Virus record (IMG/VR): IMGVR_UViG_3300050505_000066 | Location: 1,017 to 65,016 of that record | Strand: one strand, 5' to 3' | Origin: a virus | DNA length: 64,000 nt | Shown here: positions 9,255 through 53,923 of the stretch, in pieces | Numbering within the stretch: position 1 is the first letter of the stretch | Layout: each line of letters begins with the position of its first letter | Translations under genes and position numbers: made by a program | The notes under the pieces: model-generated | Seen by the model: the letters and a program-made list of their open reading frames with translations, nothing else | Databases searched by the model: none | Told to the model about the DNA's origin: nothing

Positions 9255-10286
9255 TTATGTAACGCCTGACTTGTTGTTAACAGAAAGAATACGACCATTA
9301 GCAAGTTCGTTTAGAACTTCTAGAGTAACTTCACCCACAACGAGACCTGCAACAGAGTCGCCTCGCTTACCGACTAGCTGATGAACCATTGGTCTCAACC
9401 ATGCTAGACGATTCATGTTCCTCTGTAGGAAGAACATCTGTCCACCAGTCGCTGTTGACGACGCAGTAGCAGTGTTAGCATTAGTTGATTCTGGTACCCA
9501 ACGATCTAGCACGACCTGAATTAGGCCGAAATCTGAATCGAAGAAGTCGATAGCCGAAACTAATTTCTTGTCAACGGCAGCAATACCACGAGAGTGAGGT
9601 ACGCTTGAAGACGCACCAGGAACGCTCAAGGCACTTACCTGACGTTTGACTTTTGGACTTACATAAACCTGTTCGGGATTTCCGCCAGCTTTATAAATAA
9701 GTTCCAACATATCATTGAAGTCTCCAACCGCCAACTGACCATCATGCGTAGCATCACCAGTGTTTGGAGCACCAGCATTAGTTCCTGCATACGCAGTATT
9801 GGTAAGAATGAAGGACTGGAAACCTTTCATGACACGTGCCGATGCTGAGTTACCAGTTGCGGTAGTCAACACACCGAACACGACTTTTTCTAGCTTAATT
9901 GCAAGACGCTTTGTTGCCTTTTGAATTTCATAGGCATAGGCATCCTTAAAGCCAGCAGTGTTAATTGCACGCTGCGTTTCGGAAACACCGATATCCTGAC
10001 GCAGAATCATTGTCACATTGAACACACGCGAAGGAGTGGTTGTAGTGTCATAAGTGTAATCGGCACCTTCCACTGCTCCTGTAGTATCCACGGACCCGAG
10101 AGTATCAATTGGCCACTGATGATAAACATGCTGACATGTTACTTTTGGAGCCTGTGATACCCAAGGGGTGTCCCAAGGGTCTACATTGGTGATCTGGTCT
10201 AGTAAGTCTTCCTTAGCTACACCAACACCTGGGAGTAAACCAAACTTATAGGCACCCGCATTACCAATAGGAGTTGAACCCGGCAT
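9255..10286 (-). CDS. Major capsid protein (DUF5309 / SU10-type, HK97 fold)
   Basis: 'EDLLDQITNVDPWDTP', 'HQWPIDTL', 'NVTMILRQDIGVSETQ', 'SDFGLIQVVLDRW' and 'GEVTLEVLNE' match this MCP family; position after the scaffold gene. Confidence 0.9.
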   Translation of the reverse strand: MPGSTPIGNAGAYKFGLLPGVGVAKEDLLDQITNVDPWDTPWVSQAPKVTCQHVYHQWPIDTLGSVDTTGAVEGADYTYDTTTTPSRVFNVTMILRQDIGVSETQRAINTAGFKDAYAYEIQKATKRLAIKLEKVVFGVLTTATGNSASARVMKGFQSFILTNTAYAGTNAGAPNTGDATHDGQLAVGDFNDMLELIYKAGGNPEQVYVSPKVKRQVSALSVPGASSSVPHSRGIAAVDKKLVSAIDFFDSDFGLIQVVLDRWVPESTNANTATASSTATGGQMFFLQRNMNRLAWLRPMVHQLVGKRGDSVAGLVVGEVTLEVLNELANGRILSVNNKSGVT

Positions 10287-10384: not shown

Positions 10385-11551
10385 TTATGGCCCAAACACT
10401 GTTCGTGACATTGGGTCATTATCTAAGTCTCTACCTATTGTAAGGCGTCTCCATTCATCTCCTAATCCTGTATTTCTCATTCGAGCAGCAGCAGCATCAA
10501 TATCCTCTTGCGTTGGTCCCACTTTTACAGTCTCATGGACACCGCCCGCAACAGTTGCGAATACTCCTGCATCTTGACGAGCCTGATCTACAGCATCTTG
10601 GCGAACTTTATCTGCAGCGTCAAGTTGAATTTCTTTAACTTGATTAGTTGCAGTTTGATTAGCCTGAATAACCGCATTTCGTGCTCTATCAAACTCAGTC
10701 CAAGCTAACTCTGCTGCCTCGCGATGGTCATTAGAGTTGATCAAGGCGTTTACAGCTTTATTAATCAATGGATTGGTTCGAATAAAAACATCGATTTCAT
10801 CTACAAAATCAAGAGCCGCTGGATGTTTTTCCCTCATATAGGCATCGACATCTTGCCATGTTTTTTGCTCTTTAGCGAGACGATCATCTCGAATCTTAAG
10901 AGCTTCACTCACTGCATTCTGAGCAGTAGATTTAGCATATTCTGTAATGCTATCTCTCAATGCTGGAATGTCCTGTTCGTCGAGAGTTCCACCATCTGCG
11001 ACGATCTTAGATAGCACTTCATCTAATGGTAGGCTCGATGCTGGCTTTGTTTCGGGTAGTCCGAGTTGTGGAGCCTGAACCGAGAGTGTTTGACGGGAAA
11101 TTAGTTCGTTACGAAGACGGAGATTCTCAACTTCGATCATCTCTTTCTGAGTAAGAGCTTCTTTCGCCATCTGAACAGCATGACGTACACCTTTAATAGC
11201 CTCTTCCTTGTTTTTGTACTTCTCAAGGATTAGGCCATTTTTACCGCGATATGATTCCCAATCAATATCCGGCTCCGAGGTAACGGGAACTGTTTCGACT
11301 TTAGCATTCGGTGGAGTTGTAACAGCAGGTGGGTTGTCCACAGGGGCTGTTTCTGTTTTTGGAGGTTCAGTCGTTGTGCTTCCATCAGACGGTGGGTTGT
11401 CCACAGTTTCTGTTGGAGTAGTGCGAGGTTGTGCAGAAGTCCAATTAATTTCATCCATTCGATCCATAACATCTGGTTGTACAATGTTATCTGCGATATT
11501 ACGAAGAAGTTCGGCTTCTGCTTGGGTTACTAATCTTGGATCATAAGTCAT
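10385..11551 (-). CDS. Capsid scaffolding protein
   Basis: Acidic, Pro/Thr-rich N-terminus, coiled-coil, 'KYKNKEEAIKG' segment; lies between portal and MCP. Confidence 0.7.
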   Translation of the reverse strand: MTYDPRLVTQAEAELLRNIADNIVQPDVMDRMDEINWTSAQPRTTPTETVDNPPSDGSTTTEPPKTETAPVDNPPAVTTPPNAKVETVPVTSEPDIDWESYRGKNGLILEKYKNKEEAIKGVRHAVQMAKEALTQKEMIEVENLRLRNELISRQTLSVQAPQLGLPETKPASSLPLDEVLSKIVADGGTLDEQDIPALRDSITEYAKSTAQNAVSEALKIRDDRLAKEQKTWQDVDAYMREKHPAALDFVDEIDVFIRTNPLINKAVNALINSNDHREAAELAWTEFDRARNAVIQANQTATNQVKEIQLDAADKVRQDAVDQARQDAGVFATVAGGVHETVKVGPTQEDIDAAAARMRNTGLGDEWRRLTIGRDLDNDPMSRTVFGP

Positions 11552-12787: not shown

Positions 12788-14749
12788 CTATGTCATAGCC
12801 GCCATCGGAGGTAATTGGCCAGCTGATCCCATTCCTGATTCATTTTCTCCACTATTCATCATAGGAAGTTGAAGAGGTTGTTGTCCTCTTACAATTTGTC
12901 CTGAAGTTGGAATATTGGGTAATTGACCTCCACCAACATTTTGAACCATTTGATTCAATGGTGGTGTAGATTTAAAAATTTCATTTATATTAGGAATTTC
13001 AAACTCTCGGAAAATACCACGCCAGAAATTAACAGCATTAATTTGTGCCATAGCAACTTGACCAAGAGGCGTTCCCATGGCAGTCAAAAGTTGAATCAAA
13101 GCTTGTTGTTTCATACTTTGAGATAGACCAGATGTAGCTCCTACTGCTCTAGCAGCATAATTTGGAACCATATCATAATGATCTAATGTTTCTCGACTAG
13201 CTCCAATTGGTGCTCCAGTGACCGGATCAACTTGTGCTCCATCACCAAGAATCAAAATTTCAACTGGAGTATCTAAGAATTGTTTATCTAAAGCCACAAA
13301 CATATTAGCAAGTGGTTCAAGTGTTGTTTCTTCAAATAATCTAGATTCAAGAAGAAGTCTGGTTCCAGCTGCCTCGCGCCTTCCTACGAATTCACGAGCA
13401 GTTTGACGATCAGGACCTTGTAATCCTTGAACAGCATCATCTACAATTCCTGTACCCATTTGGACGAATTCTTGGATTTGGGCAATTTTATTATCAGCAA
13501 TTGAGAGACCAGCCAAATCTTTCATTAATGGACGAATCATAGCATCAGGATTTCCATCAATCCCAATAAAACGTCCAGGTCTAGCATAAAGATTTCTAGT
13601 ATTTAGATTAGATGCTCGATCATAAAACCAAACAGGATCAATAACAAGATCAGCAGCATCTAGTGATTGATTGATATAACGATTCCCAACTAATTGAAGT
13701 TTTTCGACAGTTTCAGCTTTTCCTGGTGCATAGAAATAATGAGGATCAGGTGTTGGAGCGAAACTTACGAAAGGAAGGAGATTGTGCCAGAAAGGATTTG
13801 GGCGGTTTCGGAATAAATATCTCTTATTTGCGACAGTTAATACACGATTTAAAACGCCGTCTGAAGAAAGTTCGGATGGGATATAGCCCCAAAATTCTAA
13901 TATTTCAATTGGTCTAGAATATCGATCCATCCAGCGAATGGATTCATCATCCATTCCAGCACGTACAGCAAATCTACGAATCATTGACTGGGCATCCGTA
14001 GACTGATAATTGACCCCACCCTCACGCTCTAGCCGAGCTACTTCATTCTTATCAAATATTCCCTCACTCGCGAGGAATCTGATATCATCAAGGTCTAGGA
14101 AATATCTACGAATAACCCATTTCATATCTTTTAGACGTTTTACTCCTGGTTGAGGGAAAAAGTCTAGAAGATCAAGAATTTCGGTTATTGGTCCATCAAA
14201 AGAAGTAATTTCACCTTTTTTGATGCTTTTAACTACACGACCAGAAATTGGGAGTTTATCAACATATTCGATGATTCTTTGTTCTTTTTTACGTTTCCAT
14301 CCGACTTGAGCCACTGCTACTCCATAGAGATCAGCAGTTACTATGAAGTCTGTCATTTTAACGAAGGCATCATCATCCTTCATTTGAGCAGAAACTAGAG
14401 CTTCGCGTTTCCTCGCGGTAGGCATATCATCTGGACCATAACCGAGGAATGTAACAATTGGCCATTTGTTGAGGGATGTGGCTGATTTACGAGCAGCATC
14501 AGCCCAAATGGCTGAGAAAATAAGAGGAATATGGATGTTATTTTTATGAGGATGGAAACGTCCAGTCCAAGTTCCCCTCCAAAGATCATAGAGGCGAGGC
14601 CATTGGATTCGAGTTCCCCCAAAATATTGTTGTGATAACTTCATTCGTGATGTTACAAGATCGATTAATTGATCTCGAAAAGCATCAGGGGTTGGTGCGC
14701 GGTTAATGACTAAACTTGTGTTTGAGCCTCCCGCACTTTGATAAAGCAT
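12788..14749 (-). CDS. Portal protein
   Basis: 653 aa; 'DFFPQPG', 'NPFWHNLLPFVSF', clip-like 'ARPGRFIGIDG' and 'QTAREF' segments; position after terL. Confidence 0.9.
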   Translation of the reverse strand: MLYQSAGGSNTSLVINRAPTPDAFRDQLIDLVTSRMKLSQQYFGGTRIQWPRLYDLWRGTWTGRFHPHKNNIHIPLIFSAIWADAARKSATSLNKWPIVTFLGYGPDDMPTARKREALVSAQMKDDDAFVKMTDFIVTADLYGVAVAQVGWKRKKEQRIIEYVDKLPISGRVVKSIKKGEITSFDGPITEILDLLDFFPQPGVKRLKDMKWVIRRYFLDLDDIRFLASEGIFDKNEVARLEREGGVNYQSTDAQSMIRRFAVRAGMDDESIRWMDRYSRPIEILEFWGYIPSELSSDGVLNRVLTVANKRYLFRNRPNPFWHNLLPFVSFAPTPDPHYFYAPGKAETVEKLQLVGNRYINQSLDAADLVIDPVWFYDRASNLNTRNLYARPGRFIGIDGNPDAMIRPLMKDLAGLSIADNKIAQIQEFVQMGTGIVDDAVQGLQGPDRQTAREFVGRREAAGTRLLLESRLFEETTLEPLANMFVALDKQFLDTPVEILILGDGAQVDPVTGAPIGASRETLDHYDMVPNYAARAVGATSGLSQSMKQQALIQLLTAMGTPLGQVAMAQINAVNFWRGIFREFEIPNINEIFKSTPPLNQMVQNVGGGQLPNIPTSGQIVRGQQPLQLPMMNSGENESGMGSAGQLPPMAAMT

Positions 14750-36049: not shown

Positions 36050-36799
36050 ATGATAAACCAAAAGATCGCTGAAGATAATTGCATTCTTCGTGCTCAAGTT
36101 GGTTCTAAAGCTCACGGTCTTAACATTGAGGGAACAGATGATACAGACGAGATGGGAATTTGTATTCCTCCTCCTGAATATGTGATTGGTCTTAAACCTT
36201 TTGAGCAGTGGGTTTACAGAACCCAACCCGAGGGAGTTAGAAGTGGTCCCGGTGATCTTGATCTTACGATCTATTCTCTTAAGAAGTATGTAAAGCTTGC
36301 AGCAGGAGGAAATCCATCCATCTTGATGTTGTTGTTTCTTCCATCATATCAATTTAAACATTATCTTGCTGAAGATTTGATTAAACACCGAGAATGGTTC
36401 ATTTCTAAAAGGGCGCTTAAAGCATATCTTAATTATATGATCGCTCAAAAAGAAAGACTTTTTGGGGAAAGAGGTCAAAAACGAGTTAATCGGCCTGAAT
36501 TAGTTGAAGAGTTCGGTTTCGATGTAAAGTACGCTATGCATGTTATTCGTCTTGGACTTCAAGGGCAAGAACTAGCAAAAACTCATAATATTTCATTACC
36601 AATGAATGAAGTGGATAAGGGTTGTTGTTTAGCAATTCGAAAAGGACGATGGTCTCTTATAGAAATTCGTCAATATTATGAATCTTTAAGAACTAAATTA
36701 GAATATGAAATTGATGAAGGAGACCTTCCCGATGAACCAAATCACAATCGAATTGATAATTGGTTAGTTGATGTTCACCAAGAGTATTGGAGACTTTAA
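36050..36799 (+). CDS. DNA polymerase beta-superfamily nucleotidyltransferase (PF10127-like)
   Basis: 'VGSKAHGL...DDTDEMG', 'GNPSIL', 'KYAMHVIRL'. Confidence 0.85.
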   Translation: MINQKIAEDNCILRAQVGSKAHGLNIEGTDDTDEMGICIPPPEYVIGLKPFEQWVYRTQPEGVRSGPGDLDLTIYSLKKYVKLAAGGNPSILMLLFLPSYQFKHYLAEDLIKHREWFISKRALKAYLNYMIAQKERLFGERGQKRVNRPELVEEFGFDVKYAMHVIRLGLQGQELAKTHNISLPMNEVDKGCCLAIRKGRWSLIEIRQYYESLRTKLEYEIDEGDLPDEPNHNRIDNWLVDVHQEYWRL

Positions 36800-37202
36800 A
36801 AGAAAGGGTTTAAGTGAAACAGGAAATTGCTGTTGGTCTAAATAAAGAAACTGCTGATCTTCTCCGTGATTTAGCTTCAAAGATTGGTGTGACAGTAGAT
36901 CATCTTTGGGGTGTACTTGTGAAGCAAGCCCCAATTTATGGGTGGACTATTCTTTCCCTTGGAATTCCTCTTTTGTTCGGATGGATTTTTTGGTTTAGAT
37001 GGTTGGGCTGGCTTGAGAGGACAATAAATAGTAAAAAAGAAAAACATCAATATTATGAAAGTGATCCTCACTATGTTGGAGCAGTAGTAAGTGCAATTTT
37101 ATTAGTAACTGGAACTTTGATATGGGTTTTTAATCTTCCTACAGTTTTTGGTTGTTTATTCAATCCTGAATATTGGGCACTTAAACAAATTTGGAAGTAA
37201 AG

Positions 37203-37766
37203 ATGATTAAAAATGATAAATGGATTCTGAATCATTGTAACTCAACCGATCGTCTCATTGAACCCTTTGAAGTTCAAAAAGAAAAAGGGATTTCGTGGGG
37301 TGTTTCCTCGTTTGGGTATGATCTTCGACTTGCAGATGAATTCAAGATATGTAATGGTGGAGAATATTTTCAACCAGGATCAGCACGGATAATTGATCCA
37401 AAAAACTTTGATCCTAAACTTTTTGAGGATTATAAAGATGATTTTTGTATTATCCCTCCTCATGGTTTCGTTTTAGGTAGGAGTGTTGAGTATCTTCGAA
37501 TTCCACGAAATATTATGACAGTTTGTGTGGGTAAATCTACTTATGCTAGATGTGGGATTATTCTCAATGTGACTCCTCTTGAACCGGAGTGGGAGGGTTA
37601 CGTTACCTTGGAGATTTCTAATACGACTCCACTTCCCGCTAAGATATATGCCAACGAGGGAATAGCCCAAATTCTCTTCTTTGAAGGTGAAGAACCTTGG
37701 ACATCATATGCTGATAAAAAAGGAAAGTATCAAGGACAGAAAGGGATAACACTTCCACGTTTGTGA
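37203..37766 (+). CDS. dcd: dCTP deaminase
   Basis: 'SSFGYDLRL', '[10 protein letters not shown]', 'PLEPEWEG', 'GKYQGQ'. Confidence 0.95.
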
Positions 37767-37974
37767 TTATCCACAAATACCGTTGGTCTAATAAAAATAA
37801 ATTACTTTGTGGTTTAAATATTTGGAAAACTACCCATAATCAATGGAAATATGTAACATGCAAAAAATGTTTAAAATTCAGGAAAGGAAATGAAAAAACC
37901 AAACATCCGAAAGCTTCTTAATGAACACGAACCAGATGAAGTGGATGAAATTTTAATTGAGAAAGGACTAAAGA

Positions 37975-38649
37975 GTGGAATTAACAGAATTTATAGAAAA
38001 ACAAAAAGAAAATTTGAGGAGGGGGATAGCAGAACTTCAAAACCCTCTAGCCGAAGAAAAGAAAATTGAGTTTACTCCTTGGCCAAAGATAAGTCGTTTT
38101 AATCGTGAAATATGTATCACGGAGAAAATTGATGGCACAAATTCAGCTATTGGAATCACCGATAACGGGGAAGTTTATGCTCAATCTCGCAACCGCATTC
38201 TTGAGCCGGGAAAATCTGACAATTACGGTTTTGCTGGATGGGTCCAAAAACATAAAGAAAGCCTTAAATTACTTGGGCCTGGAGTCCACTTCGGGGAATG
38301 GTATGGGGTTGGAATTGGTCGTGGATATGGACTTTCAAAAAGAGTATTTGCCCTCTTTAATGTTAAAAGGTGGAGAGAAGAGAAAGAGAATTTAATTTTT
38401 CAATCTTTGTGGGGACAAAATATAGATATTCGAACTGTTCCAGTCCTTTATGAAGGACCTTGGTGTGATCCTAAATTTGGGGATTTCATGCCTCCCAAGA
38501 TTCTTTATCAACTCGGAGCACACGGTTCAAAAGCTGAACCGGGATATGATCGCCCTGAGGGAATTGTAATTTTTCATAAAGCCAGCCAAGCGATGTTCAA
38601 AATCACCTTAGAAAAGGATTCTGAATGGAAGGAACAAAGCAAAACTTAG
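37975..38649 (+). CDS. ATP-dependent RNA ligase (Rnl2-like adenylation domain)
   Basis: 'TEKIDGTN' (KxDG), 'FGEWYG', 'FALFNV', 'EGIVI'. Confidence 0.85.
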   Translation: MELTEFIEKQKENLRRGIAELQNPLAEEKKIEFTPWPKISRFNREICITEKIDGTNSAIGITDNGEVYAQSRNRILEPGKSDNYGFAGWVQKHKESLKLLGPGVHFGEWYGVGIGRGYGLSKRVFALFNVKRWREEKENLIFQSLWGQNIDIRTVPVLYEGPWCDPKFGDFMPPKILYQLGAHGSKAEPGYDRPEGIVIFHKASQAMFKITLEKDSEWKEQSKT

Positions 38650-39604: not shown

Positions 39605-39883
39605 ATGAAAGTTCTTGGAAATCGAATTCTAGTAAAGAAGATTGATCCACCCAAACCAGAATCTTCACTCATTGAAGTTATTCAATTCGAACAAGAAGAA
39701 TCTCAATTCGCTCTTGTTCTTGGTGTTGGTAATGGGCCTCAAGTAGACCCCGAGGTGACAAAGGGAGATACTGTTGTAATCAAGCCCTATTCAGGTGCTC
39801 CTTTAAAAGTGAACATCAAAGGAAAGGATGTTGAAGCTCATATGTTAGCAGCTGAAGATGTTTTGGCGGTAGTTTTAGTATGA
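39605..39883 (+). CDS. groES: GroES-like co-chaperonin
   Basis: 'LGNRILVK', 'VLGVGNG', 'GDTVV', 'EDVLAV'; the mobile loop is divergent. Confidence 0.8.
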   Translation: MKVLGNRILVKKIDPPKPESSLIEVIQFEQEESQFALVLGVGNGPQVDPEVTKGDTVVIKPYSGAPLKVNIKGKDVEAHMLAAEDVLAVVLV

Positions 39884-45233: not shown

Positions 45234-46229
45234 TTGACGAACGATCAAGTGTCTATATTACAAGATCAAATTGAAAAATTCTGGAATTGTCTTCCTCATC
45301 CAACTCCAGATCACGTTGTTCGTTTGTTTGCAAAGAAAGGTGATGTAAGATATGGTGACTTTGCCCGTTCCCCTAGCGAGCTTAAACGTTTTATCCTGGG
45401 CCATCTTGACTTCGATGTGTATATGGCACCTAACCCAACAACAAAAACCACAGAAACTAGACATTCGGCATCTGATGTTGATTATTGGTCTTTTCTTTTC
45501 TTTGACATTGACCCTATCGAATCTATTAATAATCCAACTTTAGCATTAGATGAAATTCTTAAATTATTTGGAGGATGGTCTGGTCATGACTTAATCACAA
45601 AAGATCGACCAACTATTATTGATAGTGGCCGTGGTGTCCAAGCGTGGCTACAACTTGAAAGTATCAATTTAGATCGACCAATCCTCCAAATGAAATTAAC
45701 ACAAAAACCTGTTGAAAGAAAAGAAGTTCGTAAATTAATGAGCTTCTGGCTTCGTCATATTTCAGACCGAATTGGACTTGTTCATGGTTGCCGTCTAGAT
45801 ACCTCGGTGTCGGACTTACCAAGAGTTATGAGAATGCCTGGAACAGTGAATCAGAAAACAGGACGGATGGCGAGCGTTCTTCACTATCAAGAACGACCAT
45901 ATCCTTGGCTTGCTTCATTTCTTATTCATGGCGCACCAGATTCTATCTACCAGGAACCAGATAATTTAAGCATGCCCGAGGGAACTTCATGGCAGATGGT
46001 TTTTAACCGTTTATCAATGCAATCTCAAAAATATTATTTTGAGGGAAAGGCTGAGCCTGGAAGACATAAATTAGCGTGGCACACAGCACGGACGTTTTGT
46101 GAACTTGGAATTAGTCGTGAACAAGCATATTTGTTTATTAAGACAGCTAATAGTCGATTGGGAGAAGATGAAGAACTCGATGAAGGAGCGATAAAGCATG
46201 CCCTTGACACAGCCTATTCCACAGAATGA
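45234..46229 (+). CDS. Archaeo-eukaryotic (RepB-type) primase
   Basis: Motif I 'FFDID', motif II 'SGRGVQ' (usual His is Gln), motif III 'DLPRVMRMPG'; helical C-terminal domain. Confidence 0.75.
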   Translation: MTNDQVSILQDQIEKFWNCLPHPTPDHVVRLFAKKGDVRYGDFARSPSELKRFILGHLDFDVYMAPNPTTKTTETRHSASDVDYWSFLFFDIDPIESINNPTLALDEILKLFGGWSGHDLITKDRPTIIDSGRGVQAWLQLESINLDRPILQMKLTQKPVERKEVRKLMSFWLRHISDRIGLVHGCRLDTSVSDLPRVMRMPGTVNQKTGRMASVLHYQERPYPWLASFLIHGAPDSIYQEPDNLSMPEGTSWQMVFNRLSMQSQKYYFEGKAEPGRHKLAWHTARTFCELGISREQAYLFIKTANSRLGEDEELDEGAIKHALDTAYSTE

Positions 46230-46619
46230 ACCTAATTTTTCAGGCACCTTAGTTTTGAATGATAATGGAGAAAATGGGACTTTTTGGACATATAGTCTGC
46301 CAAATGCTATAGATTTTTATGATTCTAGTTTTGGATCAATTCGACCAAGACAAGTTTGTGATATTCGAACAATGTTTTTTCAAGATTGGATTAGATTAGC
46401 AACATCAGACGTTACAATTTATACATTTAAATTAGTTCTTTCAAACCAAAGAACATATTCAAAATCTAGAAATATTTCAAGATTAGAAGAGGTTCGAGGT
46501 GATAGACCAGGGATTGAAAGAATAACAAAATTTGAGTTAGTGAGTGAACTTTTGAATGGTCAAATTTCTCTTTGTCCCGATCATCGACGACAACTTGAGA
46601 TAATGCGTGAAGAATATTC

Positions 46620-46648
46620 TTGACATAAGGGTTAAATTGTGGTAATAT
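46620..46648 (+). promoter_or_regulatory. Sigma70-type promoter
   Basis: TTGACA-17 nt-TAATAT with TG extension, upstream of the vWA/recombination block. Confidence 0.65.
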
Positions 46649-52359: not shown

Positions 52360-53119
52360 TGATACAATTGATGTTGAAATTATGCATGACAATACTTCTG
52401 GAGGAACAAAAGAACTTTACGCTCGACCTGGAAAATTTCTTGGAATCGATGGACCAGAAGAAGATAAAAGGATTCTTGAAAGAATGAATAAGCAAACTAC
52501 AATCTACTTATCCGGGCCAATGAGCGGATTGCCAGATTATAATTCTGCAGAGTTCGCTAAATACGCAGAAATCTATCGTCAACAAGGATTCCGGGTTCTT
52601 TCCCCTCCCGAATTAGATGCCGGGGATTGGTCTAAGGATTATGCATTCTACATTAAAAGGGATATTGAAGTCCTTGTAAAAGAACACGTCAGTCGTATCT
52701 ATCTTCTTCCTGGTTGGCAAGATTCTCGTGGAGCTAGACTCGAACACCACATTGCAGAGCTTCTTGGAATTGGAATTTACGATGCTGTAACAGGTAAGCC
52801 ATATAAAGAAACAGTTGCTCAAGAAGCAAATAGAATTGTAAATGGAGACCGCCGAGGGAACTATGGTTCTCCCCTCAAAGATTTTGGTCGTACCTCGGGC
52901 ATGCTTAATGCATTGTTAGCACATAAGCTTCGAGAGAAATTATCTGAAGAAGATGTTTCTTTAATTATGATTTGTGTGAAACTCAGTCGTTTAGCAAATT
53001 CACCTGATCATAGAGATTCCCTCGTGGATATTTGTGGGTATGCTTTAACGTATGAACTAGTTCAGAGTGAACGAAAGGATTATAGTGGGACTGTGGTTTC
53101 TGGATCAAGCACGAAATAG
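52337..53119 (+). CDS. DUF4406 (nucleoside deoxyribosyltransferase-like) + DUF6378-like fusion with a portal-like N-terminal peptide
   Basis: 'IYLSGPMSGLPDYN', 'W.DSRGARLE', 'GDRRGNYGSP', 'DSLVDICGYA'. Confidence 0.75.
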   Translation: MLTDYSNNDTIDVEIMHDNTSGGTKELYARPGKFLGIDGPEEDKRILERMNKQTTIYLSGPMSGLPDYNSAEFAKYAEIYRQQGFRVLSPPELDAGDWSKDYAFYIKRDIEVLVKEHVSRIYLLPGWQDSRGARLEHHIAELLGIGIYDAVTGKPYKETVAQEANRIVNGDRRGNYGSPLKDFGRTSGMLNALLAHKLREKLSEEDVSLIMICVKLSRLANSPDHRDSLVDICGYALTYELVQSERKDYSGTVVSGSSTK

Positions 53120-53396
53120 ACTTTGGTTAAATGATTATACTGGTGAATGGATTTTTACACGACCTGAATTAAGATATCAAAGATGTAAAAATCCAATTTT
53201 TGTTCATTTTAAACGTGAAACTCAACCAGGATTTCATAATCGTAGCCATAGAAAAGCAATTTCAAATGCTTGGTATAAATATTTACTAGATCAAATTACT
53301 AATATTGATCCTTGGGAAACTCCTTGGATTTGGAAACATCCTAAAATAACAGATTTTATATGCGATATTGTGCCGAATGTCATGGTAGAAAAATAA
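53067..53396 (+). CDS. Hypothetical protein containing a copy of the MCP N-arm peptide
   Basis: LLDQITNIDPWETPWIWKHPKIT versus MCP LLDQITNVDPWDTPWVSQAPKVT. Confidence 0.7.
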   Translation: MNERIIVGLWFLDQARNRLWLNDYTGEWIFTRPELRYQRCKNPIFVHFKRETQPGFHNRSHRKAISNAWYKYLLDQITNIDPWETPWIWKHPKITDFICDIVPNVMVEK

Positions 53397-53923
53397 AAGC
53401 TGTTCTTGGTTCTCGTTGTATAAGACATTACCTTTGGAGACAAGCTAGATATCATAGAATTTCTAAATATGGATGGTGGAAACATCACGTTCCTAAACTT
53501 TCTAGACAAATTCTTGGACGATATCTTGCAATTAGTGAGGGATTTGATCCAGGAAACATCAAACCCATTATTCAACAGTTTTTAATGGGTGATCATTCAG
53601 TTCATAGATCAAAGAAGAAAGCTCGATATTCAGGAATTATTGCGATAGTTAAGATCATAGACGCAGCAGATAGACACGCTAGGAAGGATTATGAAGCCAG
53701 TCAACGTAGCAATAGTAGCAAAGAAAATTGATGGGAAGTATGAAGGAGTTTATCTTGTGGATAATCGTTTCACAAGAATTTTAACTGGAACGGCCCTCGT
53801 GCCAATGGTTCAAGGACAGATTTCAAAGATACTTAAAGAGGATTTTCCTGAAGGTGTTGATGTAGCGATCAATATTAGCATTAATGAAGACGATACAATT
53901 CAACCCAAAGAAGAAGAAAAAGA

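Follow-up and report, generated by a model that had tools for sequence, protein, structure and literature searches.

The N-arm of capsid proteins with the HK97 fold contacts neighbouring subunits and, where there is a separate one, the scaffolding protein. The C-terminus of CpmB, a capsid-size protein of the staphylococcal island SaPI1, resembles the scaffolding protein of the helper phage, and in bacteriophage T4 a short capsid-targeting sequence directs small, often basic proteins, the internal proteins IPI-III and Alt, into the procapsid. Here we describe a small gene in a stretch of 64,000 nucleotides (nt), called the window in the following, which represents almost the whole of the 65.6-kb uncultured virus record IMGVR_UViG_3300050505_000066 (positions 1,017 to 65,016). 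The gene is located at 53085-53396 on the + strand, and the C-terminal 35-40 residues of its product derive, as an old and partial paralogue, from the N-terminal arm that the virus's own major capsid protein carries. We class this feature as mimicry of head-assembly proteins by a short segment; gene 61.1 of T4 comes closest to it.

The core of the likeness is the 23-residue peptide LLDQITNIDPWETPWIWKHPKIT, encoded at 53283-53351 (+) inside an open reading frame (ORF) listed as 53067..53396 (+). Its source is LLDQITNVDPWDTPWVSQAPKVT in the N-arm of the capsid protein, encoded at 10137-10205 (-) inside the 343-amino-acid (aa) ORF 9255..10286 (-). In pairwise BLASTP 16 of the 23 residues were identical and 21 of the 23 positive (E 6e-12), which agrees with a preliminary description of the locus that had reported the 16/23 match. 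An all-against-all comparison within the window (617 six-frame ORFs), a check proposed in that description, ranked the capsid-arm pair first with E 3e-11. When four head-module proteins (capsid, portal, scaffold and large terminase) were aligned by the Smith-Waterman method with 42 non-structural ORFs and with 100 shuffles, the pair scored 105, against a family-wise shuffle maximum of 59. That the longer ORF encodes the major capsid protein, as had been supposed, was established by its match to Pfam family PF17236 (SU10_MCP, E 2e-64); it is a capsid protein of the SU10 type with the HK97 fold, and 9ny2 and 7z45 are solved relatives.

The DNA of the two segments is the same at 50 of the 69 bases (72%), and 12 of the 19 differences are in third codon positions. 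The proportion of differing synonymous sites (pS) is 0.75, a saturated value, and that of nonsynonymous sites (pN) is 0.15. Because synonymous sites are saturated and the differences are mostly third-position changes, the arm-like segment is an old copy kept at the protein level and no recent DNA repeat; purifying selection has held it while the synonymous sites became saturated. These values bear out two further suggestions of the preliminary description, namely that the shared residues use different codons and that selection acts on the peptide. A nucleotide-level repeat or regulatory element was ruled out by the same combination of 72% identity and predominantly third-position differences. 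The N-terminus of the small protein, LWFLDQARNRLWL (53085-53125, +), did not resemble the capsid motif FFLQRNMNRLAWL (residues 284-297) significantly (E 0.22), and the resemblance was not conserved among the homologues of the small protein.

A GTG start, the small size of the ORF and the lack of any database annotation could be taken as signs of a chance match, or of an ORF that is not a gene. The protein is 103 aa long if translated from GTG 53085 and 109 aa if GTG 53067 is used. The start is most likely GTG 53085, which has the sequence AAAGGA 5 nt upstream and at which public gene calls also begin (P0001, 103 aa). The log-likelihood of codon usage was +0.30 per codon in this frame but negative, at -0.39 and -0.97, in the two others; the GC content at third codon positions (GC3) was 0.15. 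No Pfam match was obtained for the ORF at E values up to 0.01, or for P0001 and the four homologues at E values up to 10. In PHROG scans the small protein was without a family match, and its homologues and the neighbouring small ORFs yielded nothing useful, as did Pfam scans of these neighbouring ORFs; ESM Atlas look-ups of the small protein and its neighbours gave no usable lead, and neither a DNA nor a protein match to the gene was found among GenBank phages. The window sequence occurred only in DNA runs, from rhizosphere metagenomes, and contigs of these runs were identical to it over the covered parts of the gene. Against a chance origin stand the score of 105 over a shuffle maximum of 59, the in-frame coding signal and the four homologues in conserved synteny from independent samples, and we give that explanation practically no weight. 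The preliminary description was right in treating ORF 53085-53396 as a real gene; it is small and conserved, and belongs to the replication (early/middle) module.

The four homologues, P0002, P0003, P0004 and P0006, are small proteins of 90-125 aa that were obtained, with E values from 4e-17 to 6e-7, in an exhaustive phmmer search of 1.8 billion representatives; together with the window gene they make up a capsid-arm mimic family of five. In loci L003-L006 the homologue directly follows a gene for a DUF4406/DUF6378 protein, as in the window, and in L007 it directly follows DNA polymerase A. Downstream, the end of the small gene is overlapped by 37 nt by a gene at 53360-53731 (+), which is supported by an in-frame coding signal and encodes a basic protein of 123 aa with a zinc-ribbon-like N-terminal CxxC...C pattern. 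It could not be assigned to any family; a homologue was found in L003 (E 1e-24) and tblastn matches in L004 and L005, all in the same relative position. The product of this conserved neighbour may be a functional partner of the arm-mimic protein. A frameshift fusion of the two genes was considered and rejected: no canonical slippery site was seen by eye, and the homologues keep two overlapping ORFs. In L004 (963-1340) the called 125-aa P0002 extends, without a change of frame, into the beginning of the downstream-gene homologue (tblastn match 1190-1366), which may reflect a longer overlap or a frameshift in the contig.

Only two blocks are conserved in the family, with flanks that are 7-31% identical. 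One is a basic, His/Arg-rich core (KNPIFVH..PGFHNRxHRKAIS, 53187-53270, +) with 58% mean pairwise identity, for which no known relatives and no Pfam or PHROG match were found. The other is the arm-like block, LLDQITNIDPWETPW, with 57% mean pairwise identity; the P, T, P and W of its DPWxTPW motif are invariant across the family, and P0003 and P0006 continue to resemble the capsid protein through the QAP and H.W positions. A profile of the family matched the capsid proteins of relatives over about 40 model positions (45-84) with E 5e-11. The Trp motif of the family has the clade-specific form, DPW-TPW; in more distant capsid proteins of the SU10 type the corresponding sequence is DTPF.

On the capsid side the arm hardly varies. 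All loci obtained in motif scans, 27 from IMG/VR and 28 from JGI metagenomes with some contigs in common, are capsid genes, and every one contains the arm EDLLDQITNVDPWDTPWVSQAPKV or a close variant, although overall identity among these capsid proteins is only 55-84%. With so constant a capsid side, there is no co-variation signal between mimic and capsid to read. Among cultured phages, the closest capsid proteins share about 30% identity. The window capsid gene, with 46% GC and GC3 0.37, is much GC-richer than the rest of the genome, and its product is 80% identical to the capsid protein of the relative G002 (L019), which has 63% GC compared with 39% in the window.

These features bear on the possibility that the gene is a historical relic, left by partial duplication of the capsid gene (its 5' part), in which the arm block now serves as a structural element with an unrelated job, for example in nucleic-acid binding via the basic core together with the zinc-ribbon neighbour, and no mimicry is involved. 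The His/Arg-rich core and the translationally coupled zinc-ribbon partner do suggest a nucleic-acid-related role, the gene is in the replication module, and phage ORFans often arise from gene fragments. However, the family has conserved P..TPW and the helix before it, and precisely these residues are invariant in the capsid clade. Nor does a pure relic predict that the same arm should be captured or kept separately in a second genome, G002, and likewise in T4, which has a capsid protein of another family. We consider the relic explanation unlikely, but still a serious contender.

The G002 case is as follows. This relative has an estimated genome of about 64 kb, and in it a 105-aa ORF, P0009 (G002:C1:10309-10626, the same as L040:1489-1806, - strand in L040), ends in 32 residues that copy the arm of its own capsid protein: 16/32 residues are identical (E 3e-9), with the likeness continuing through the YH.WL.D.L positions. 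The score was 90 against a shuffle maximum of 56, and GC3 equals that of the neighbouring genes. P0009 is placed after an AAA_25 helicase gene and before a Zn_ribbon_8 gene and a Cpn10 gene, a position different from that of the window gene, and it aligns to the window family over the arm part only (hhalign probability 40%). Judged by sequence, either the arm would have been captured a second time here, or P0009 would be a member of the family that has moved and diverged strongly.

The preliminary description knew of no locus of this kind. An analogous case is, however, present in T4, where gp61.1, a 54-aa protein annotated as hypothetical, is encoded next to the primase gene 61 (L083:2967-3131, -), beside dmd, 61.4 and 61.2. 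Residues 2-38 of gp61.1 match residues 57-93 of gp23 (L086:46-501, +) at 17/37 positions (E 1e-9). The copied part of gp23 presumably spans the cleavage site of the gp21 head protease at about residue 65, the start of the mature capsid protein. A literature search for 'gp61.1' turned up nothing characterising the protein.

What the small protein might do is best explained, in our opinion, by binding through the arm motif. The protein would be largely unfolded alone and would act as a short-linear-motif mimic, its free arm copy occupying the site that is normally taken by the capsid arm during head assembly. A neighbouring capsid subunit and the scaffolding protein (10385-11551) are candidates for carrying this putative site, and its occupation might either influence when, or in which geometry, the head is assembled or attach the basic N-terminal part to the procapsid as a tag. 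Several observations were counted in favour of such a role: the statistics of the match, the contrast between pS and pN, the reality of the gene and its conserved synteny with an overlapping partner, the conservation of just two blocks, the arm block among them, the clade-specific DPW-TPW form of the latter, and the independent cases of G002 and T4 gp61.1. An AlphaFold2 model of the small protein had low confidence (predicted local distance difference test score, pLDDT, 51), with a helix at residues 53-72 followed by coil; a low value for the protein alone fits a segment that folds on binding.

Other points weigh against this role. The small gene belongs to the replication module and not to the head module. 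In five complete relatives (41-53 kb) that have the same capsid arm, the family profile matched only the capsid protein, and no mimic gene was present; the gene is thus not needed for assembly as such. Five incomplete relatives also gave only the capsid match, but the four that were checked have no replication module and are therefore uninformative. Further members were not detected: word-based protein searches recovered the query or the five known members and nothing else, and in IMG/VR, JGI metagenomes and prokaryote genomes the scans yielded capsid genes or no match at all. The family, with its five members, is rare. Moreover, that the small protein binds a capsid-arm partner is what we infer from its sequence, and the partner of the arm in a capsid of the SU10 type is itself putative. 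For the capsid protein paired with residues 28-103 of the mimic, complex prediction scored 0.00, a value that counts neither for nor against binding; the AlphaFold2 model of the capsid protein, made with a shallow alignment, had pLDDT 41 and was too poor for mapping contacts. Taking both sides together, we tentatively propose, as a possibility somewhat short of an even chance, that the small protein is an assembly modulator or a procapsid-targeting tag acting through mimicry of the arm motif.

A different partner is suggested by a GroES-like co-chaperonin gene at 39605-39883 (+; Pfam Cpn10, E 6e-10), which belongs to the context of the small gene and is not a proven part of the system. The arm copy might engage the route by which GroEL and the phage GroES fold the capsid protein, for instance to prime GroEL, compete for it or regulate it. 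Cpn10 genes were found in both genomes with a mimic (2/2, the window and G002) and in none of the complete relatives without one (0/5), and T4 has, in addition to 61.1, gp31, a GroES analogue; the motif itself is hydrophobic and rich in Trp and Pro. This co-occurrence is nevertheless confounded by phylogeny, amounting effectively to one clade compared with another plus T4, and that the arm is a determinant for GroEL is a supposition. We regard a chaperonin link as quite improbable.

The arm copy is not the only piece of a head protein in this part of the genome. The gene directly upstream, at 52382-53119 (+; start probably ATG 52382, in an ORF open from 52337), encodes the DUF4406/DUF6378 protein, assigned by Pfam, with an N-terminal extension of about 35 aa. 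Within the extension, at 52406-52453 (+), lies the peptide TKELYARPGKFLGIDG, which resembles TRNLYARPGRFIGIDG of the portal protein (13553-13600, -) with E 1e-5 in the all-against-all comparison and a score of 73 against a shuffle maximum of 70. The extension has a coding signal of 0.62 per codon and GC3 0.14. The portal motif was conserved in the portal genes found in 27 related loci, that is, in every alignable relative; it probably belongs to the clip domain, because in an alignment to solved portals (9k09) it is located between two stem helices. The preliminary description had stated that the neighbouring gene carries a portal peptide, and this peptide indeed proved to be significant and to lie in coding sequence. 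Its notion of a paired locus held in part: two adjacent genes of the replication module each carry a piece of a different head protein, but the one available full-length homologue of the DUF4406/DUF6378 gene, in L004, is without the portal-like extension, and the homologue of the small gene in L007 directly follows the polymerase.

A third piece was found at 46198-46623 (+), where the final third of the capsid protein (residues ~239-333) recurs in diverged form as a 141-aa ORF with an in-frame coding signal. This ORF matched the capsid protein in hhalign with a probability of 85% (E 6e-6, 83 columns) and in BLASTP with E 9e-5, scored 63 against a shuffle maximum of 59, and retains the AIDFYDS.FG and RN..RL motifs; searches for relatives of this ORF found none. 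GC3 is 0.14-0.17 in all three pieces, as opposed to 0.25-0.29 in the neighbouring genes. A single inserted and decayed copy of the head module was ruled out as their common source: the pieces are 7 kb apart and out of order, and the intervening genes of the replication module are conserved in G002. The match itself is solidly established, and with the G002 case, the portal-like peptide and the copy of the capsid C-terminal part, the pattern is broader than first noted. Elsewhere in the window, at 36050-38649 (+), there is a gene set of the RNA-repair type that consists of genes for an RlaP-like nucleotidyltransferase (E 6e-29), a dCTP deaminase-like protein and an RNA ligase.

Three head-protein pieces in one module could also be expected of an immune decoy or inhibitor, the reading favoured in the preliminary description, in which a free copy of the arm would bind a host sensor of the conserved capsid arm and block or titrate it before capsid protein accumulates. 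A nearly invariant capsid arm would be well suited as a target, and the gene resembles counter-defence genes in being accessory and sporadic. Capsid-derived peptides are, however, activators of known sensors (the Gol peptide of T4 in the case of Lit, the capsid protein in that of CapRel). Since they trigger such systems and do not block them, an early copy is not obviously protective and could even be harmful, and no capsid-mimic decoy was found described in a literature search. Judged from sequence, the decoy reading is neither supported nor refuted, and we attach little probability to it. A more general proposal would be that capsid-arm mimics are recurrent, convergent early proteins of phages, represented in the present soil phage clade with its SU10-type capsid, in G002 and in T4, and are self-epitope mimics that either blunt host sensors recognising the arm or gate the chaperonin-dependent folding and assembly of the capsid, the copies of the portal clip and of the capsid C-terminal part being instances of the same strategy; it has, in our estimate, a small chance of being correct.

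If the arm copy does engage a partner of the capsid arm, it would offer a simple and portable way in which a phage could control or exploit the assembly of its own head. It could equally interfere with a chaperonin, an immune sensor or another reader of the arm. T4 shows this design independently and is easy to manipulate genetically, and the idea is therefore directly testable. As three significant matches were obtained in this genome, an all-against-all search for short peptides can give a lead on orphan small genes.

Compared with known systems, the small protein is most similar in design to T4 gp61.1: both are products of small ORFs in the early or replication region that copy an N-terminal stretch of the major capsid protein encoded by the same phage. 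The two are unrelated in sequence and their capsids are of different families (gp23 and SU10 type). The copy is N-terminal in gp61.1, while in the window protein it is C-terminal, following a basic core, and a head protease was not seen; Pfam and PHROG scans of most head-module ORFs, including those between the portal and capsid genes, named no protease. The small protein has in common with SaPI1 CpmB a short terminal segment shared with a head-assembly protein, by which CpmB competes for a binding site. CpmB differs in that it mimics the scaffold and belongs to a satellite, and in that its binding and effect have been shown experimentally, those of the window protein being putative. The targeting sequence of T4 IPI-III and Alt, in contrast, is N-terminal, binds the scaffold core, is cut off by the gp21 protease and is no copy of the capsid protein; the C-terminal arm block of the window protein does not conform to this type of targeting. 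T4 gp24, the vertex protein and a paralogue of the capsid protein, is similarly derived from the capsid gene by duplication, but paralogues of this kind keep the whole HK97 fold, whereas the small protein keeps about 40 residues of the arm. The family shows homology to the capsid N-arm (profile E 5e-11, pairwise E 6e-12) and does not belong to SU10_MCP: PF17236 was not matched, and its members have 90-125 aa as compared with capsid proteins of about 340 aa. An ORF of less than about 130 aa with a significant match to the N-arm of its own capsid protein was found in the window, in G002 (P0009) and in T4 (gp61.1), and in each case in an early or replication module, after DNA polymerase A and the DUF4406/DUF6378 gene in the window, after AAA_25 in G002 and beside the primase gene in T4. 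Common descent was not apparent among the three, as P0009 aligns to the window family over the arm only and gp61.1 is unrelated to it. On their sequences, such capsid-arm mimic mini-proteins would form a class by analogy and not by homology, and the capsid-arm mimic looks like a recurring kind of phage gene.
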